A stretch of 64,000 bases of DNA. Origin: Phycisphaerae bacterium (GTDB taxonomy: Bacteria > Planctomycetota > Phycisphaerae > UBA1845 > Fen-1342). The stretch lies in contig JASFQK010000007.1 in assembly GCA_050115495.1 (NCBI GenBank), positions 1 through 64,000 on the forward strand, read 5' to 3'. Below, in pieces: positions 56,391-63,640 of the stretch; the stretch's first letter is position 1, and each line of letters begins with the position of its first letter. The translations under genes and the position numbers were made by a program. The notes below the pieces were generated by a model. It searched no databases and was not told the DNA's origin. It saw nothing but the letters and a program-made list of their open reading frames with translations.

Positions 56391-59300
56391 ATGCTCGGGC
56401 ACACCATGATGGAACAACGAATGTCGCGCCTGTGGCTGCTGGGTGCCATATTGCTCGGTTCACCTGTGCTGGCCGACACACTCCTCGTACCGAGCCAGTA
56501 CCCGACCATCCAGGCTGCGATCGACGCGGCATGGCCCGGAGACGCAGTCGAAGTTGCCGACGGCACATACACAGGCGACGGGAACCGGGATCTCGACACC
56601 GCCGGCAAGGCGATCACCGTCCGCAGTGCGTCCGGTGATCCCGCCCTGTGCATCATCGATTGCGAGGGATCATCGAGTGAACATCACCGTGGCTTCCATT
56701 TCCACAGCGGCGAGACAGCCGCCACGATAGTAGACGGCATCACCATCTGCAATGGATACAACCACGGCGGTGGCGGCGTCTGCTGTGCCGAAGCCAGCAG
56801 CCCGACGCTCATCAACTGCAGAATCACGGACAACACTGCGACGCAAGCAGCCGCCGGCATCTACTGCTACGACGACAGCAGTCCGACCATCACCGACTGC
56901 ATGATCGCAAATAACACCGCGGGCCATTCAGGCGGCGGCATCTGCTGCCAAGGCGCCAGCAGCCCCACCATCACCAACTGCACGGTAAGGGCAAACACGA
57001 CGGACGCCTCCGGCGGCGGGATCTATTGCTCCGACCACTGCCACTTGACCATCATCGACTGCACGATCAGCGACAACTCACTTGGCACCAGTGGTGGCGG
57101 TGTCCACTGTCAGCTCTATAGCAGCCTCACAATGACCAACTGCACGATCGCGCACAACGCTGCCAGCAATGCCGGGGGCATTAGCTGCAGCGTGCATTCC
57201 GAAATGATGCTCACCAACTGCCTGATCACAGAAAACACCGCGGACCAGTATGGCGGCGGCGTCTTCGCGTCCGGCGACTGCGTGCTGGCCCACTGCACGA
57301 TCGCGAGGAATACCGCTGCGGGCGGGGGCGGTGTTCGTTGTGGTGTCGACGGCGCCACCCTGCTCAACTGCGTCATAAGAGACAACACGGTAACAGGCAA
57401 CGGCGGTGGCGCCCTCTGTATCGACAGCGATGCCATGTTCATCAATTGCGCGATTACAGGGAACACGGCAGAACACGGCGGCGGCATCTTCAGCGAAGAC
57501 AACCCGAGCCCGACGTTCATCAATTGCACGATCGCGGATAACACTGCGGATGACGGCGGCCTCTCCTGCAGTTGGGACAGCACCCCGATATTGACCAACT
57601 GCATCCTCTGGGGCAACTTACCGACGGAGGTTTACGTGTGGACGGGAGCCCCGGTTCTGACCTACTGCGATGTGCAGGGAGGATGGGCCGGTGAGGGCAA
57701 TACCGCCGTCGATCCGGTGTTCGTCGACCCCGTAAACGGCGACTACCGGATTTCCAGAGAGTCGCCGTGCATCGACGCAGCCAACAACCACGCCCTGCCT
57801 CCCGATGCGTTCGACCTCGACGACGATGGCGACACGGAAGAGCCAATCCCCCTCGATCTCGCCGGCCACCCCCGCCTCTTTGACGATCCGAACACGCAAG
57901 ACAGCGGTCTCGGCGAACCACCGCTCGCTGACCGAGGCGCCTACGAGTACCAGGGGCCGTTGACGCTCAACGTTCCAGAAGACTATGACACGATCCAGGC
58001 AGCGATCGATGGGGCGATCAACGGCGACGTCGTCACCGTCGAACTCGGCGTCTGGAGTGGCCCCGGCAACCGAGACCTGGATTGCCGCGGTAAGGCCATC
58101 ACCGTGCGCAGCATCGTCGGAAGCCCGACACTGTGTATCATCAACTGCGAGGGGTCGTGGAACGACCCCCACCGCGGCTTCCATTTCCACAGCGGCGAGA
58201 CTGCCGACACGGTCATAAGGGGCTTCACCATCCGCAATGGAGAAGCGGAGTTCGGCAGCGGCATCTGCTGCGAGGGCAGCAGCCCGACAATCAACCACTG
58301 CACGATCAAGGAAAACGGTTCGCTCAACTACCCAGGCGGCGGGCTCTATTGCACGGCCAGCAGTCCTGCGTTGACCCACTGCACCATCAGCTCAAACACG
58401 GCCTACACCGGCGGCGGCATCTACGGCTCGCACAGCAGCCCTGCATTGCACGAGTGCACCATTATTGGAAACACGGCGTACGACGACGGAGGCGGCATCT
58501 GCTGGTCGAACGGCGGTCCTGCGTTCACCGATTGCAGCATCACGGGAAACGTGGCCGGAAGCAACGGCGGCGGCTTGTATGCCTACGGTGCCAACCTCTC
58601 ATTGACGGACTGCACGATCAGTGCGAATGAGGCCTACGCCGGCGGCGGTCTCTATTGCGAGCATGCCTACCCGACGTTTACCCGCTGTACGGTCAGTGAT
58701 AACTCCGCCGATTCCTACGGTGGAGGTGTCTACTGCCTCTTGATCCACCCCACCTTCACCGACTGCACGGTCCGCTCGAATAGCGCTGGTGTCATGGGCG
58801 GCGGCGTGTATTGCCGGCAAAATGGCAGCCCCACCTTCACCGATTCGGAGATCATCGAGAACACGGCCGGCGGCGGTATCGTCTGTGAGTATCACTCCGA
58901 CCCAATCTTCTTCAACTGCACGATCGCCAGAAACGTCGGCGCGGTTGGCGGTGGCCTACACTGTTGGGAAGGATCCAACCCGGAGCTCACGGACTGCGCG
59001 ATCGCGGAAAACACGGCGGAATACGACGGCGGCGGCGTCTTCTGCACAACGGGCAGCAACCCGGTACTCACCAACTGCACGATCGCCGCCAATGTTGCCT
59101 CCACCGGCGCCGGCGGCGCGCTCTCCTGTGTGGAAGAAAGCAGCCCGACGTTCATGAATTGCCTGATCACCGAAAACTCGGCGTCGTCCGGCGGAGCGCT
59201 GCACTGCTGGATGGCCGACCCGACGTTCACCAATTGCACGATCGCCCTGAACACCGCAGGCTATGGGGGCGGGCTGCTCTGCGAGGAAATGAGCAGCCCG

Positions 59301-59834
59301 GTGCTGACCAACTGCATCCTGTGGGCCGACTCGCCGCACGAGATCTTCGTCTACTCCGGTACACCCGCCGTGACGTACTGCGACGTCCAGGGCGGCTGGC
59401 CCGGCGGAGGCAACATAGACGCCGACCCGCTGTTCCTCGCCGGGCCGGTCGGCTACTTCTATCTGAGCCATACCGCAGCCGGCCAACCGTTTGACAGTCC
59501 CTGTATCGACGGCGGCAATGACACCGCCGAGCACTACGGCCTGGCGACGTCAACGACCCGCCGCGACGAGGCTGTGGACACCGGCATCGTGGACGTCGGC
59601 TACCACTACCCGGTCACAGGCCAGCCGTTCGTGCATGGCGACTTCGACTACAACGGCAACCTGGACATGGAGGACTTCGGCGAATCCGTCTCCTACGCAA
59701 CGGGCCCCGCCCCGGATCCCCCGCACTGGCCGCCGATGTACGGGAACCCCCGCGGCAACATCGTCGACTTCGACGACGACGGCGACGTCGACCTGTTCGA
59801 TTGGAGCTGCTTCCAGTCGGCGTTCGCGCCGTAG
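56391..59834 (+). CDS. Secreted right-handed parallel beta-helix repeat protein, two tandem modules plus C-terminal dockerin-like domain
   Basis: RBS GAGGAGG; VP..Y.TIQAAID twice; many GGG(I/L/V)xC...PT(I/F)TNC(T)I..N repeats; GDFDYNG...DFDDDGDVD. Confidence 0.88.
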   Translation: MLGHTMMEQRMSRLWLLGAILLGSPVLADTLLVPSQYPTIQAAIDAAWPGDAVEVADGTYTGDGNRDLDTAGKAITVRSASGDPALCIIDCEGSSSEHHRGFHFHSGETAATIVDGITICNGYNHGGGGVCCAEASSPTLINCRITDNTATQAAAGIYCYDDSSPTITDCMIANNTAGHSGGGICCQGASSPTITNCTVRANTTDASGGGIYCSDHCHLTIIDCTISDNSLGTSGGGVHCQLYSSLTMTNCTIAHNAASNAGGISCSVHSEMMLTNCLITENTADQYGGGVFASGDCVLAHCTIARNTAAGGGGVRCGVDGATLLNCVIRDNTVTGNGGGALCIDSDAMFINCAITGNTAEHGGGIFSEDNPSPTFINCTIADNTADDGGLSCSWDSTPILTNCILWGNLPTEVYVWTGAPVLTYCDVQGGWAGEGNTAVDPVFVDPVNGDYRISRESPCIDAANNHALPPDAFDLDDDGDTEEPIPLDLAGHPRLFDDPNTQDSGLGEPPLADRGAYEYQGPLTLNVPEDYDTIQAAIDGAINGDVVTVELGVWSGPGNRDLDCRGKAITVRSIVGSPTLCIINCEGSWNDPHRGFHFHSGETADTVIRGFTIRNGEAEFGSGICCEGSSPTINHCTIKENGSLNYPGGGLYCTASSPALTHCTISSNTAYTGGGIYGSHSSPALHECTIIGNTAYDDGGGICWSNGGPAFTDCSITGNVAGSNGGGLYAYGANLSLTDCTISANEAYAGGGLYCEHAYPTFTRCTVSDNSADSYGGGVYCLLIHPTFTDCTVRSNSAGVMGGGVYCRQNGSPTFTDSEIIENTAGGGIVCEYHSDPIFFNCTIARNVGAVGGGLHCWEGSNPELTDCAIAENTAEYDGGGVFCTTGSNPVLTNCTIAANVASTGAGGALSCVEESSPTFMNCLITENSASSGGALHCWMADPTFTNCTIALNTAGYGGGLLCEEMSSPVLTNCILWADSPHEIFVYSGTPAVTYCDVQGGWPGGGNIDADPLFLAGPVGYFYLSHTAAGQPFDSPCIDGGNDTAEHYGLATSTTRRDEAVDTGIVDVGYHYPVTGQPFVHGDFDYNGNLDMEDFGESVSYATGPAPDPPHWPPMYGNPRGNIVDFDDDGDVDLFDWSCFQSAFAP

Positions 59835-59898
59835 TGGGTGCGGCGGCCCGTGCCCGCCAATTCCCCCGGCACCCACCCGCGGGCACGGCCCGGCCTAC
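59831..59898. repeat. REP-like palindrome pair between convergent genes
   Basis: GGCGGCCCGTGCCCGCC ... GCGGGCACGGCCCGGCCTAC; related copies near 60599-60664 and 62153-62175. Confidence 0.65.
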
Positions 59899-60158
59899 TT
59901 CTTTGTGGTCCGTTTCGCCTTCGCTTTGGGCTTCGGCGGGTCGTCGATCAGTTCAAGCAGATTGCCGAAGTCGACACCGAGAGCGCGGCATATCTTTTCG
60001 AGGGTCGCAATCGTCGCGTTGTAGCCTGGCTGGCTTCCCATGATCTGCAGCGTGCCATGGGCGATACCGGTTCGCTCCGCGAGCAGCTTGTATGTCATGC
60101 GCTCGCCAGTTCGTCGCCGGTAAGCCTCCATAGCCTCCCTCAGCTTGATTGCGACCAC
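59895..60158 (-). CDS. XRE/Cro-C1-type HTH transcriptional regulator
   Basis: MTYKLLAERTGIAHGTL...TIATLEKICRALGVDFGNLLE. Confidence 0.85.
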   Translation of the reverse strand: MVAIKLREAMEAYRRRTGERMTYKLLAERTGIAHGTLQIMGSQPGYNATIATLEKICRALGVDFGNLLELIDDPPKPKAKAKRTTKK

Positions 60159-60205
60159 GTCTTATCCACCAAGAAAGAAATCATAGCTGATAATTAAGAT
60201 TCTGC

Positions 60206-60234
60206 TTGACACCGAGCAGACATAGATGTATAAT
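60206..60234 (+). promoter_or_regulatory. Perfect-consensus sigma70 promoter
   Basis: TTGACA (60206-60211), 17-bp spacer, TATAAT (60229-60234), in an AT-rich patch divergent from the HTH gene. Confidence 0.85.
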
Positions 60235-60240
60235 ACCGTC

Positions 60241-60545
60241 ATTAGCAGAGGCTCGGTAACCGCTCGCCGACGCGGGGTGTTAAAGACGCGCCCTACGGCG
60301 TGAACCTCGGACGGCCGGCGGTATATATGCCCTGGCAGGCAAACGGTCACTCCAGCAGGCACGCTTACAGCAACGGCGTGATGCGGGTTCATGCTCACCT
60401 CAGCCAAGGCAGCCTCGCCCGGGACAGTGTCCGCGCTTATCATAGCGGGCGCTGCCCGGTGCGCGGGGTCGCGAGGGTGAGCTTGACCGTTTGCCCGTGA
60501 CCTTTAGCGCATCGGGTGGCGCCCGTTTCCTTTTGGTGCCATCAG
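60241..60545 (+). ncRNA. Candidate structured non-coding RNA or long structured leader (family not recognised)
   Basis: Begins at the predicted TSS; nested stems 60277-85/60502-10, 60338-49/60484-95 (12 bp perfect), 60393-401/60473-82, 60419-34/60445-59; 3' hairpin 60515-23/60535-43; G-U pairs favour the + strand. Confidence 0.55.
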
Positions 60546-60720
60546 CTTTCGACGTTCCGCCGTCCCCAACGGCGTCGCCACCCCTGCGCGCCAATGCCGG
60601 GCGGGCCGTGCCCGCCAATCGCGAATCCGTCCGAACACCCGCGGCGGCCACGGCCCACCCTACATGGTGCGGAGGCAACGCCGCGGTCGAAGACCGGGGT
60701 CATGGCGTGGAGGAGTGCCC

Positions 60721-61254
60721 ATGCTCGACCGGATCCATACCCGCGCCGGCGACGGCCTGATGCTGACCTTCCCCTACGTCAGTGGCAACGACAACGTCCC
60801 CGCCACACTCGAATTCTGGACGGCCCACGTCGCCCGCGACCTCCTGCAACTCGCCGTCCACTTCCGCGCCCTCGGCATCCTGGGCGAAATCCCCGGCGGA
60901 GCCCGCTATCAAGGCCTCGACTACGGTCGCGGTAAAGACCTCCCCGAAAGCGCCCCCCCGTGCTTCTGGCTGCGCCCCGTCGACCGCCAGACGCGGTTGA
61001 ACGTTCTGGCCGAGTGCCTGCGGCGATTGAACGCACGCGAGGTGTTCACCCGCATTCGTGAAACACACGACTACCGCCCGCAGACGCTGCCGGGCAAGTG
61101 GACCGCCTACCTGGACCGGCACGCCGCGATTAAGGGCGGGTTGCTGACGGTGGTCGCCTGTTGCATCGACATACTGGTCGTCGAGCCGGGGTTGGAGGAA
61201 ATCGAGCTGCGGGCGACGTGGTGGCAACGGTGGTGGGCACACACGAACGAATAG
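60721..61254 (+). CDS. Hypothetical protein (177 aa)
   Basis: RBS GGAGGAG before ATG; no family recognised. Confidence 0.7.
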   Translation: MLDRIHTRAGDGLMLTFPYVSGNDNVPATLEFWTAHVARDLLQLAVHFRALGILGEIPGGARYQGLDYGRGKDLPESAPPCFWLRPVDRQTRLNVLAECLRRLNAREVFTRIRETHDYRPQTLPGKWTAYLDRHAAIKGGLLTVVACCIDILVVEPGLEEIELRATWWQRWWAHTNE

Positions 61255-61315
61255 GACGAGCCCACCAAATTCGTCGCCGAACCGGAGAAGCTCATCACAA
61301 CAGAGGACGAACACT

Positions 61316-62035
61316 ATGACCGCACCGACCACACGCCACGACAACGAAAACGCCGCAGAACGGGCCGTGCCCGCCGGCGGCGACACGCCGGAAACGCCCG
61401 GCCCTGCGCCGACCGACACGGACGCCTTCGCCCTGACGGCGTTGCTCCACGATCTCCAACCACACCCCGAACTCGACCTGCCGACGATGGCCTATCATCT
61501 CCATCAATCCGACGCCACCGCCGCCGACGGCTACGGCCACGCGGCCATCAACGAGGCCCGTTCCGCTCTCGAAGCCCTCATCGTCAGCATCGCCCGCACC
61601 ATCTGCCACGGCGTGACAGATAGCACCGGTCTTCGCCTCCGCGAACGTATCCAGGCCGGCAGCACGTTCCGCACACACCGCCGCTGTCTGATGGACGCCG
61701 GCTTCATCGACATCGACGAAAACGAACTGCTGCAATACGTCTACAGCATAGCCAGCGCCCGAGGCAGCCATTACGGCGTAACCGACGACGCCTGGACCCG
61801 CCTGGCCCGGCGAATCGTCTTCATCGTCGGCCAGCACTTCACACAGCGTTACACCATCTGGAAGCAAAACGGCCGCCAGCCGGCGTCGCTTCCCACCAAC
61901 CACCCCCAGCCGGCGTCACGCTCCTGGCCCGCGCGCCTCCTCGCCACCCTCCTGCCCCGCCGACAACCACCCCCAACGCCCCCCATCTCCACCAGGAGAT
62001 CAACCCGCCGCAAACGCGCGAACGCACGCACGTAG
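61316..62035 (+). CDS. Hypothetical alpha-helical protein, weak resemblance to HEPN/Abi_C-like domains
   Basis: RBS GAGGA; AAINEARSALEAL ... SIASARGSH pattern; disordered termini. Confidence 0.6.
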   Translation: MTAPTTRHDNENAAERAVPAGGDTPETPGPAPTDTDAFALTALLHDLQPHPELDLPTMAYHLHQSDATAADGYGHAAINEARSALEALIVSIARTICHGVTDSTGLRLRERIQAGSTFRTHRRCLMDAGFIDIDENELLQYVYSIASARGSHYGVTDDAWTRLARRIVFIVGQHFTQRYTIWKQNGRQPASLPTNHPQPASRSWPARLLATLLPRRQPPPTPPISTRRSTRRKRANART

Positions 62036-62049
62036 GGCGCCGCGCGGCG

Positions 62050-62494
62050 GTCGACGTCGGCCACGGGGGGCCGACGCTACGGGACGGCTGGCACGGAGAC
62101 CGGCCGCTACGGAAGACGTCCGACACGCCGCAAACGCGCGAATCGACAAACATAGGGCGGCCCGTGCCCGCCAATAGGCAACAGAACCCGCCAGAATCCG
62201 CCAGAACCTAGCATTCCTAGGATTCCCCTTTGCTTCTCTCCCGAAGCGCGTCTATCTTTCACGTGCTCACGCAGTTCCCGGGCCCGCCTTGACGGACCCT
62301 CGGCCTTCGGAGCCAGGACGTCGATCGAAACGTTGTAGCACGGCTAACCCCGTGTGGTCGGCGACCAAACCCCGAAGACGGATCGTCTCGTGACCCGTGC
62401 GTCGGCGGAGCACCTTGCCGATCGTCGTCGGCCTGTAGCGGCCGGTCTCCGTGCCGGCCGTCCGTAGCGTCGGCCCCCCGTGGCCGACGTCGAC
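62050..62494. repeat. Pair of ~60-bp inverted repeats built from GTAG-type REP-like units
   Basis: 62050-62110 is the reverse complement of 62435-62494 apart from one substitution and one indel. Confidence 0.85.
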
Positions 62495-62707
62495 TGCCGG
62501 CGACCGTTCACCTCGGTGAACACGGCAACGGTGCTCAGAGGACGTCGCTCGCATCGGCGAACGCCAGGACGCGGCTGCCTGCACGGAACCGCCCCCTCGC
62601 GGTCACTCAGCGCAGCACCGGAGCGGATCTTTGACAATCGAGTATGCCCCATTCGCCGCGCGGGCGGCCGATCCAGGACGCCCGCGCGCCAGAGCGAAAG
62701 CGGACAC

Positions 62708-62870
62708 AGGGGCAAAGGGGCAGAGGAGCAAAGGAGCAGAGGGAGGGCGATCGGCCCCCGACCGCTCTGCTGCCTCGGCACTCTGAGTGGAGCCGAAGGG
62801 GCTGCCTCCGGCTCAGGGCTCAAGGCTCACGGCTTGTGGCTGACGGCTGACGGCTGATGGCTGATGGCTT
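62708..62870. repeat. Short tandem repeats: 8-mer GG(G/A)GCA(A/G)A and 7-mer GGCTGA(C/T)
   Basis: ggggcaaa-ggggcaga-ggagcaaa-ggagcaga; ggctgac-ggctgac-ggctgat-ggctgat. Confidence 0.7.
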
Positions 62871-62914
62871 CGCGAAGACGTCCGGTATGGAGCTCGGACG
62901 CTACGGCGTTCGCC

Positions 62915-62944
62915 GCACTGGTGGACAAGCCACCAGTGGCACCC
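62915..62944. repeat. Further copy of the CACTGGTGG...CCACCAGTG palindrome
   Basis: GCACTGGTGGACAAGCCACCAGTGGCACCC is the reverse complement of 53981-54010 with one mismatch. Confidence 0.8.
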
Positions 62945-63010
62945 AGTGTTCGCCGGCGGTGGCACGCGAGTTGCCGAGCGCGCAACGCCTCGTTGCCTCG
63001 TTGCCTCCCC

Positions 63011-63640
63011 CTACTCAGCCCACAACCCGCCCGTCTCGCGCAGCCACGCCACAATGCAGTCGGCGGCGTCGGCGACGTTGTCGTGCGAAATGTCCAGCTC
63101 CAGCGTCGGCAGGAGCGAACTCGCCGCCAGTTGGCGGAGGGCCTCCTGCTCGGCGATGAAAACCGACAGATCGTCGTACTGCGACGGGCGGCCGGAGATC
63201 TTGAGGCGGGCGGCGCGGGCTGTCGGGAAGGAGGCCGGTTCGCGCGTGCAGAGCACCAGGCGGAAGCCCAGGGCCGAGAGCCGCTCTTCCAGCCAGGTGA
63301 AGTCGAACGCCGTATCGTGCACGCGCTGCTGGTAGGCCTGCGTGGACAGGTGGAAGCGATCGACAATCCACGAGTAATACGGCAGCAGCTCGAACAGGTG
63401 CAGCCACGTGCGGTACGTCTCCATCGCCCGCTCGGCCTCATCGGGGGCGAAGTTGATGAGGCCGCGGCCCCACGGCGTGTTCGTAAACCCGCACCACTCG
63501 GCGGACACCAGCGGCGAGTGATAGCGGTAACGGCGTGGCCCGACGAACCCCGGATGCTCGTTCAGGCGGAAGGCGATCTCCGTCTTGAGCGTCAGCCGCG
63601 TGCCTTCGAGGATGATCTTCGGGCAGAGTTTCGACCCCAT
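63011..63640 (-). CDS. Hypothetical protein, NMP/thymidylate-kinase-like fold with degenerate P-loop
   Basis: KIILEGTRLTLKT and WIVDRFHLS resemble dTMP-kinase motifs; directly downstream of glgP. Confidence 0.6.
   Translation of the reverse strand: MGSKLCPKIILEGTRLTLKTEIAFRLNEHPGFVGPRRYRYHSPLVSAEWCGFTNTPWGRGLINFAPDEAERAMETYRTWLHLFELLPYYSWIVDRFHLSTQAYQQRVHDTAFDFTWLEERLSALGFRLVLCTREPASFPTARAARLKISGRPSQYDDLSVFIAEQEALRQLAASSLLPTLELDISHDNVADAADCIVAWLRETGGLWAE

Follow-up and report, generated by a model that had tools for sequence, protein, structure and literature searches.

The 64,000-nucleotide stretch analysed in this study (positions 1-64,000 of contig JASFQK010000007.1 from a Phycisphaerae bacterium; hereafter the window) contains a cassette in which a conserved structured RNA lies between a promoter and two protein genes. 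The RNA family and the cassette are real and undescribed. In order, the cassette comprises a small divergent regulator, a sigma70-type promoter, a variable leader, the conserved RNA, a U-rich tract, open reading frame 1 (ORF1) and, usually, ORF2. We consider the chances about even that the conserved RNA is a two-state transcription attenuator that gates ORF1, which encodes a protein with a presumably new fold, and ORF2, which encodes a protein with a predicted degenerate HEPN fold. The initial annotation of the window proposed a regulated RNA-plus-protein module, and this proposal is well supported: ORF1, the RNA, the promoter and the divergent regulator stay linked from genome to genome, so that the pattern which would have spoken against it, homologues of the genes unlinked and lacking the RNA, is not the one seen.

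No Rfam family matches the window at its gathering score, and none of relevance was found at E ≤ 10 over 59800-63100. A literature search, outside whose coverage lay the supplementary tables of RNA-motif surveys, found no description of the RNA or the cassette, and searches that paired Phycisphaerae or Planctomycetes with terms for RNA motifs yielded no paper. Structured RNA families of such size and with clear covariation are rare outside Rfam.

The conserved RNA and its two folds

The promoter (60206-60234, + strand) matches TTGACA-17-TATAAT at 12 of 12 positions, as initially annotated, and is the sole perfect match with a 17-nucleotide spacer in the genome (designated G000; 5.97 Mb, 66.7% GC). 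The transcript is predicted to start near 60241. Among 40 real copies with upstream sequence, a promoter scoring at least 10/12 precedes the RNA in 28 and one scoring at least 9/12 in 34, with 25-155 nucleotides between the -10 box and the RNA; the mean best score in base shuffles is 7.3. For this count, the C55 minus-strand row was dropped as a mirror match of the same copy, and L036, the 5' end of which is too short, was left out of the promoter and helix survey.

The region 60241-60540 has a folding energy of -148.8 kcal/mol (z = -3.72), and none of 200 shuffles folds as well. The structured RNA of about 300 nucleotides that had been annotated here is thus confirmed as structured, whereas its extent is revised: the conserved RNA (177-213 nucleotides across copies) occupies 60327-60534 (+), and 60241-60326 (+) is a copy-specific 5' leader with its own hairpin. 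RNA lengths fall in all three frame classes, and the RNA is therefore non-coding. A leader peptide was rejected on the same ground; the leader in the window has only one 5-codon reading frame with a site resembling a ribosome-binding site. An HDV-like ribozyme, considered by eye on the basis of its topology, was also rejected because the would-be P3/L3 region is the variable hairpin of the RNA.

From 5' to 3', the RNA is composed of segment 0, the 5' arm of helix Pb, hairpin Pc, the 5' arm of helix Pd, the 3' arm of helix Pa, a 6-nucleotide joint, hairpin Pf, the 3' arms of Pd and Pb, segment 3/4 and the U-tract, all on the + strand. Segment 0 (60329-60336) is the 5' arm of Pa; it pairs with 60403-60410 and crosses Pb. 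The nested fold (60338-60495) is built from the copy-specific stems Pb (60338-60349/60484-60495) and Pd (60393-60401/60473-60482), the variable hairpin Pc (about 60350-60389) and the conserved core hairpin Pf (60419-60459, extended by 60413-60418/60463-60468). The alternative is the 27-bp helix Pe (60446-60525), in which 60446-60472 pairs with 60497-60525 with a 2-nucleotide bulge; Pe ends directly before the U-tract and is the likely terminator stem. A marginal 5-bp hairpin and the U-rich tract itself (60526-60534) occupy 60513-60534, followed by a 3' extension (60535-60595, +) that is common to most G000 copies and in which 60576-60583 can re-pair the last arm after read-through. Since 60446-60472 pairs in both folds, Pf and Pe exclude each other.

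Both folds are supported by covariation. In an alignment of 67 distinct copies that was fitted to the nested fold (Pb, the joint, Pf and the small hairpin), 96.0% of the cells of this fold are paired, with two-sided changes in 16 of 38 pairs. Pa and the long helix Pe, which played no part in the fitting, are 98.0% paired with two-sided changes in 19 of 35 pairs (0 of 500 shuffles; 38-43% in slid controls), and Pa by itself shows two-sided changes in all 8 of its pairs and is 95% paired. An independent MAFFT alignment of 27 copies agrees with both folds; Pd is only 44% paired there because MAFFT misaligns it. The arms of Pb and Pd differ between copies and pair within each: the pairing fraction is 0.97 for cognate and 0.45 for non-cognate arms of Pb, and 0.93 and 0.44, respectively, for Pd, whereas the non-cognate fraction is 0.95-0.99 for Pe and 0.58 for Pa (rows C51_588, L014 and L023 are among the mis-anchored ones in this table). 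At fixed positions, G-U pairs outnumber A-C mismatches by 157 to 3, and by 121 to 2 in a second count, which identifies the folded strand as the transcribed, promoter-driven + strand; because the search for Pa, Pb and Pd tolerated G-U, the strand bias was taken from the fixed-position Pe only. The double duty of 60446-60472 accounts for the near-invariant core of the RNA, and the 5' arm of Pf, which has no partner in the long-helix state yet remains 93% complementary, indicates that both states are selected.

Mutually exclusive conserved helices that adjoin a U-tract between a promoter and genes are the hallmark of an attenuator, and this hallmark is present. In 55 of 58 copies, at least 5 of the 8 bases directly at the end of the long helix are T. 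By itself, the small hairpin has a mean energy of -3.9 kcal/mol, i.e., too weak for a terminator, and the long duplex one of -52 kcal/mol; polymerase release by a duplex that reaches the U-tract is possible. In the off state, pairing of 60446-60472 with the downstream arm would close the 27-bp stem at the U-tract, so that transcription would stop and an RNA of about 290 nucleotides would be released. In the on state, 60446-60472 would pair upstream in the nested fold, which would leave only the marginal hairpin at the U-tract and permit read-through. Pa likely tips the balance by keeping the nested fold open. Candidate triggers are a protein, for instance the ORF1 product, and finished RNA that a sibling copy would supply in trans. 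When ever longer 5' portions of the window copy are folded, Pa is the first helix to appear; the nested fold then dominates over 60483-60520, the long helix attains P = 0.92 at the end of the U-tract, and the nested fold is back (0.99) after read-through to 60605; the two states have energies of -101.9 and -102.5 kcal/mol. The opposite polarity, in which the small hairpin is the terminator and the long helix the antiterminator, was dropped, since it is in the long helix that both arms are paired and this helix that extends to the U-tract. With more than 60 natural variants of one two-state RNA available, the proposed switch is directly testable in vitro.

Several points weigh against attenuation. 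The U-tract is interrupted, the small hairpin next to it shows no two-sided changes, and the copies in the covariation count are related, so that sequences rather than independent events were counted. For termination, the 15-bp Pf as well as Pb and Pd would have to come apart during the stay of the polymerase at the tract, a demanding task in kinetic terms; hence, even the polarity is one that we infer. Equilibrium folding of 59 copies gave 27 mixed ensembles, 28 with the long helix at P > 0.9 and 4 with the small hairpin (L116 and L124 were left out of part of the equilibrium and prefix folding survey). Pa, Pb, Pe and Pd meet with linkers of 0-3 nucleotides and could form a single four-way-junction structure, which is beyond ViennaRNA scoring. 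In L011 and L025, ORF1 and ORF2 lie behind a promoter without the RNA, which is thus dispensable in some copies, and the ORF2 product is only a putative toxic effector, as its sequence lacks the canonical Arg of HEPN nucleases. In a wetland metatranscriptome, available as contigs only, two contigs match the RNA region of two different copies, a weak signal for which DNA carry-over is possible: one is an exact 143-nucleotide match to 60262-60404, and the other is placed at 60404-60580, with differences that by eye fit the C42 minus-strand copy. The latter extends about 45 nucleotides beyond the U-tract, which also speaks against termination there. Run X1, in which the three genes are without cover, cannot rank expression and was not used.

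Genes of the cassette and their linkage

The divergent gene (59895-60158, - strand) encodes an XRE/Cro-type helix-turn-helix regulator of 87 residues with a basic C-terminal tail; its match to Pfam HTH_26 (E = 2.5e-11) bears out the small XRE gene of the initial annotation. The same XRE family lies upstream of 40 of 63 RNA copies, a second small-protein family upstream of 8, and others upstream of a few. The divergent regulator likely controls the cassette promoter. The second, regulator-like family replaces XRE at L032:1265-1552(-), L028, L066, L069, L078 and L106, and the member tested has no Pfam, NCBIfam or PHROG match.

ORF1 (60721-61254, +; ribosome-binding site at 60709-60715) encodes 177 residues, and ORF2 (61316-62035, +) encodes 239; neither has a match in Pfam, PADLOC, NCBIfam or PHROG. 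Both had been described as orphans, which is incorrect, since relatives and in-genome paralogues exist. The ratios of nonsynonymous to synonymous substitution (dN/dS) against in-genome paralogues are below 1 for all three genes (0.10-0.29 for XRE, 0.49-0.75 for ORF1, and 0.14-0.33 for the ORF2 core), which, together with the relatives, shows that ORF1 and ORF2 are real genes. The ORF1 model (predicted local distance difference test score, pLDDT, 89) has an all-helical core. The protein carries an internal repeat (HHalign probability 94%), occurs in long and short forms, and is conserved mainly at hydrophobic residues. Its best VIA structural neighbours are helical hairpins (Z at most 7.4), Foldseek returned nothing at E ≤ 0.001 among PDB and viral structures, and the Atlas search, for which the model was poor, gave no usable feature match. 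Sequence-profile searches of the PDB gave no result. The predicted ORF1-ORF2 complex scores 0.00, which lends no support and is no evidence either way.

The ORF2 core (residues 37-188) is modelled by AlphaFold2 with high confidence (mostly pLDDT > 90; mean pLDDT 81) and is predicted to have a HEPN/Abi_C-like fold. HEPN domains, HepS and the C-terminal domain of AbiA among them, make up most of its top VIA rows (Z 10.6-9.1; best row 2hsb, Z = 10.6, root mean square deviation 3.9 Å, 120 residues aligned), in a Z range that unrelated helical bundles also reach. Foldseek gave nothing at E ≤ 0.001 for ORF2 either. The Atlas rows name HEPN, DUF4145 and Abi_C, and the feature score of 0.89 for the Abi_C cluster is a lead only. 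The weak HEPN/Abi_C-like pattern noted initially therefore stands at the level of the fold, whereas the position of the catalytic Arg is taken by Ser147: the motif segment, located from its place before the last helix rather than by residue-level structural alignment, reads S147-A-R/K-G-S-H152, not R-x4-6-H. Ser occupies position 147 in 53 of 54 close relatives and in 34 of 37 distant ones, and many polar residues are invariant. According to passages of the respective reports, AbiF toxicity requires the Arg of R-x4-H (bioRxiv 10.1101/2025.04.15.648962), and HepS requires the HEPN catalytic Arg (PMC13043305); with Ser in its place, the ORF2 protein would be either a non-canonical nuclease or a non-catalytic binder.

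A profile search collected 210 ORF2 representatives. The distant ones, at 250-320 residues, carry an additional part at the N-terminus and share the S-x-x-G-S-H segment; ORF2 is the stand-alone form of their C-terminal domain. None of 47 relatives matches Abi_C (PF14355), and one of 37 distant relatives, a two-domain protein, matches PADLOC AbiJ (E = 9e-5). Judging only from the predicted fold and these distant relatives, the genes under control most likely serve in conflict or defence, in the manner of AbiJ/Abi_C. The cassette adds two undescribed protein families, of which that of ORF2 defines a widespread S-x4-H branch of HEPN. The 250-320-residue proteins P0089-P0210, which combine an unnamed N-terminal domain with the S-x-x-G-S-H HEPN-like domain and are essentially without Pfam match, are a candidate undescribed Abi family in their own right.

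The cassette is not a single-copy module; the initial annotation had noted neither its repetition in the genome nor the pair of competing folds. In a BLAST comparison with its own genome, the region showed some 14 other copies of 60400-60660, each of the three genes proved to have paralogues, and a covariance model built on 27 RNA copies (including 14 of the 15 in G000) found 15 RNA copies in G000. Of ten further genomes reached through ORF2 loci (G401-G410), G401 has 10 RNA copies, G402 has 10 full and 2 partial ones, G407 and G408 have 3 each, and G404, G406 and G410 have 1 each; none was found in G403, G405 or G409. An even sampling of 401 genomes of the class, including G000, found the RNA pattern in 2 and ORF2 in 4, the latter a floor, and the RNA model found no match in 150 other genomes of the phylum. 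The distribution is therefore patchy but high-copy. The relatives come mostly from metagenome-assembled genomes (MAGs) of Phycisphaerae or Planctomycetota, with one Dehalococcoidia and one unclassified MAG.

The 63 unique RNA matches allow linkage to be counted. ORF1 lies within 800 nucleotides downstream of the RNA in 42 of the 45 copies with at least 600 nucleotides of downstream sequence; because many loci had been fetched via ORF2, this was recounted by hand on copies from the whole-genome RNA searches, with ORF1 in 26 of 29. Two of the three RNA copies without ORF1 (L078 and L124) have lost the last arm. ORF2 is present in 25 of the 33 copies with at least 1400 nucleotides downstream. The RNA is thus more tightly tied to ORF1 than to ORF2. 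In L011:3100-3420, the promoter is fused directly to the post-RNA spacer known from siblings in the same genome, i.e., a clean loss of the RNA, and ORF1 genes occur in tandem in L041, L045, L049 and C60.

These counts bear on an unlikely but still live alternative, a type III toxin-antitoxin system or ribonucleoprotein of the AbiF kind, in which excess short RNA would bind and neutralise the ORF2 (or ORF1) protein until a phage depletes the RNA and frees the HEPN toxin. The gene order is that of RCd22-abiF, the ORF2 core resembles HEPN domains and has many invariant polar residues, and the near-invariant RNA core could be a protein-binding site, although its two pairing partners already explain this invariance. 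However, in the 38 ORF2 loci with at least 1300 nucleotides upstream (counted by hand; two pairs are apparently duplicates), the RNA is complete in 24, partial in 2 and absent from 12, and ORF2 is missing downstream of 8 of the 33 RNA copies; the occurrence of ORF2 without the RNA weakens a strict RNA-antitoxin reading. Ser also replaces the Arg that is essential for toxicity, and neither the abiF motif nor any other Rfam family matches. The RNA-antitoxin or abortive-infection system suggested initially thus keeps its HEPN/Abi_C-like fold and is weakened by the missing Arg, by the ORF2 loci without RNA, and by the closer tie of the RNA to ORF1.

Copies, repeats and spread

Pairs of palindromes that resemble repetitive extragenic palindromes (REP-like) frame and divide the cassette. 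In the window, the left pair (59842-59898) overlaps the XRE stop codon with its GTAG foot and marks the left edge of inter-copy similarity, the internal pair (60596-60663) separates the RNA from ORF1, and the right edge (62032-62175) consists of GTAG over the ORF2 stop codon, then a repeat that occurs genome-wide in 184 copies, then a REP-like palindrome (62152-62175). Similarity between the G000 copies stops at the XRE and ORF2 stop codons. In G000, 27 of 52 palindrome copies lie inside cassette spans (drawn by hand) against 0.29 expected, an enrichment of about 90-fold, and they sit at the junctions between cassette parts; among the 89 loci of other genomes, 12, of which two are duplicates, show the palindrome, which is thus not universal. 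The parts are mosaic: over 24 complete loci, the pairwise similarities of XRE, RNA, ORF1 and ORF2 are correlated at only 0.16-0.41 (rank correlations). In G000:C51:1-2900, two tandem regulator-RNA units are joined at a REP-like pair. The core hairpin occurs alone inside a REP-like pair, between RNA and ORF1, at L045:279-334, L053:691-746 and L055:1506-1561 and 1697-1764, possibly as a decoy or a captured fragment.

The cassettes are surrounded mostly by unrelated host genes (80 of 116 neighbour cluster representatives were scanned), and no integrase, transposase or reverse transcriptase (RT) recurs among these neighbours; DDE and resolvase genes occur once each. Some neighbours are of defence type (AbiTii, DarTG, N6 methylase and TPR proteins): an AbiTii gene (L006:2007-2912) and a DarT-DarG pair (L014:342-2043) directly adjoin cassettes, and TPR genes adjoin three G000 copies. 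In the window, the cassette is directly preceded by a gene for a 1147-residue secreted-type beta-helix protein (56391-59834, +; dockerin-like tail, labelled by eye). To its right lie an inverted pair of the genome-wide repeat (62045-62112 and 62435-62499; one 25-mer, 184 copies), about 380 nucleotides apart with non-coding DNA between, further repeats up to about 62950, and a small protein gene (63011-63637, -) with weak matches to thymidylate kinase (E = 0.002) and to PADLOC PDC-M51B. Viral contigs contain no ORF2 relative; two of them matched the RNA pattern and failed the RNA model, and a second pattern matched none. Plasmid and phage collections hold no cassette copy.

The three RTs and six Y1 transposases of G000 are all at other loci. 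One RT frame (G000:C79, L099) resembles a plant long-terminal-repeat retrotransposon polyprotein and is probably on a contaminating contig; another RT gene (G000:C8:79323-79811(-), L100; 347 residues), which is preceded at a distance of about 1 kb by a strong promoter-like site (near 80935 of C8), is possibly a retron or defence RT. For the cassette itself, a retron was rejected, since there is no linked RT and no conserved base after the 5' repeat.

In a quite improbable account of the spread, a pseudoknotted RNA (or single-stranded DNA) with Pa, Pb, Pe and Pd in a four-way junction would act as the ribozyme or the scaffold of an element that propagates itself by means of ORF1 and ORF2, or of an HUH transposase in trans, at the REP-like junctions. 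The linkers of 0-3 nucleotides, the burst-like spread (10-15 copies in three genomes, against none in 399 of 401 sampled), the enriched palindromes at part junctions, the mosaic parts and the lone core hairpins within REP-like pairs would all fit. However, no RT, recombinase or transposase is linked to the cassette, none of the six Y1 genes has this REP-like palindrome within 3 kb (the assembly is 92% complete), and RNA-mediated copying would lose both the regulator and the promoter, which are outside the transcript. Furthermore, Pf is conserved although it excludes Pe, so that a second state is needed, and the conserved residues of ORF1 are mostly hydrophobic. A mobile-element remnant, as initially suggested, is compatible with the patchy multicopy spread; the copies are under purifying selection and are not decaying.

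We also give little credence to immunity of the P4 CI or P1 C4 type, in which a small RNA cut from the leader and bounded by Pb would act in trans on segment 0 and 60497-60525, so that copies silence each other and incoming copies. A central RNA with a complementary site on either side (Pa and Pe) has the layout of CI with seqA and seqC, and the Pe and Pa pairings are common to the copies, those of Pb and Pd private to each. L035:2277-2403 keeps the promoter and both flanking sites, i.e., segment 0 and the last arm, with the central core gone and ORF1 and ORF2 intact, and could depend on sibling copies in trans. Multicopy C4-like small RNAs are known in Acinetobacter, as passages of PMC5320573 report together with a GGW processing site for C4. 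Against this, no Rfam C4 or CI family matches, the 5' end of Pb is variable, unlike that processing site, no phage gene or integrase adjoins any copy among the scanned neighbours, no viral or plasmid copies were found, and the antisense segment is already paired in the nested fold. A neutral repeat family, in which pairing would merely stem from an inverted-repeat origin, would explain the embedded REP-like repeats and the fact that 21 of 27 cassette pieces reach a contig end, which is typical of repeats, but is very improbable and largely refuted already by the copy-specific compensatory stems, the strand-biased G-U pairs, the conserved promoters and the low dN/dS.

The attenuator can be extended to a wider and speculative picture that we consider rather unlikely as a whole: a new class of RNA-gated, REP-jointed cassettes that would spread to 10-15 copies per genome without an integrase of their own, in which the RNA would switch between the nested fold and the four-way junction, the shared arms would sense siblings, the private arms would serve as copy barcodes, and the products released would be a protein of new fold and a non-canonical HEPN effector of the Ser-His type. 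That some genomes have 10-15 selected, mosaic copies of a cassette without a recombinase, and most relatives lack it, raises the question of how it attains such numbers.

Comparison with known systems

In classical attenuators and the expression platforms of riboswitches, mutually exclusive helices decide which stem forms at the U-tract, and the mutually exclusive helices of the cassette RNA likewise abut its U-tract. Unlike these, the cassette has no conserved leader peptide, T-box or known aptamer, its putative terminator is a long-range 27-bp helix, and its insulated stems are copy-specific. The palindromes, which we take to be GTAG-type REP/REPIN repeats of the kind associated with RAYT transposases, share with these a GTAG foot, a GC-rich palindrome and an arrangement in inverted pairs, here at the cassette junctions, whereas half of their copies lie in cassettes and no RAYT flanked by the same REP was found in the assembly. 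ORF2 has the HEPN-like helical core of HepS (9oik; Z = 9.6 in VIA, root mean square deviation 3.2 Å over 130 residues) and distant two-domain relatives, one of which matches AbiJ; it differs from AbiJ, Abi_C and HepS in having S-x4-H instead of R-x4-6-H, in lacking the N-terminal domain, and in being paired with ORF1 and the RNA.

Passages of bioRxiv 10.1101/2025.04.15.648962 describe RCd22-abiF as a promoter, a non-coding RNA (ncRNA), a terminator and read-through into a HEPN gene, and the cassette likewise leads from a promoter through an ncRNA ending at a putative terminator to a HEPN-fold gene reached by read-through. Unlike AbiF/RCd22, it has no abiF motif (RF03085) or Abi_2 match, its RNA is twice as long with two competing folds, ORF1 is interposed and a divergent regulator is added, Ser replaces the catalytic Arg, and the copies are chromosomal (10-15) and not prophage-borne. 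The portions of PMC4825925 on Gifsy-1 IsrK and on P4 CI give, respectively, a precedent for a promoter, ncRNA, terminator and read-through into a gene, and a central RNA with the complementary sites seqA and seqC on both sides. As in P4 CI, P1/P7 C4 and IsrK, complementary sites flank a central structured unit in the cassette, with alternative folds; these systems have short and read-through forms, and C4-like RNAs can be multicopy within a genome. The cassette resembles them neither in sequence nor by Rfam, lacks a conserved GGW processing site, has no antirepressor, ash/kil or phage genes downstream, and was not found in viral or plasmid collections. By this comparison, the closest parallels to how the cassette would work are leader attenuators such as RCd22-abiF or IsrK/CI, although it stands outside AbiF, C4/CI and the retrons.

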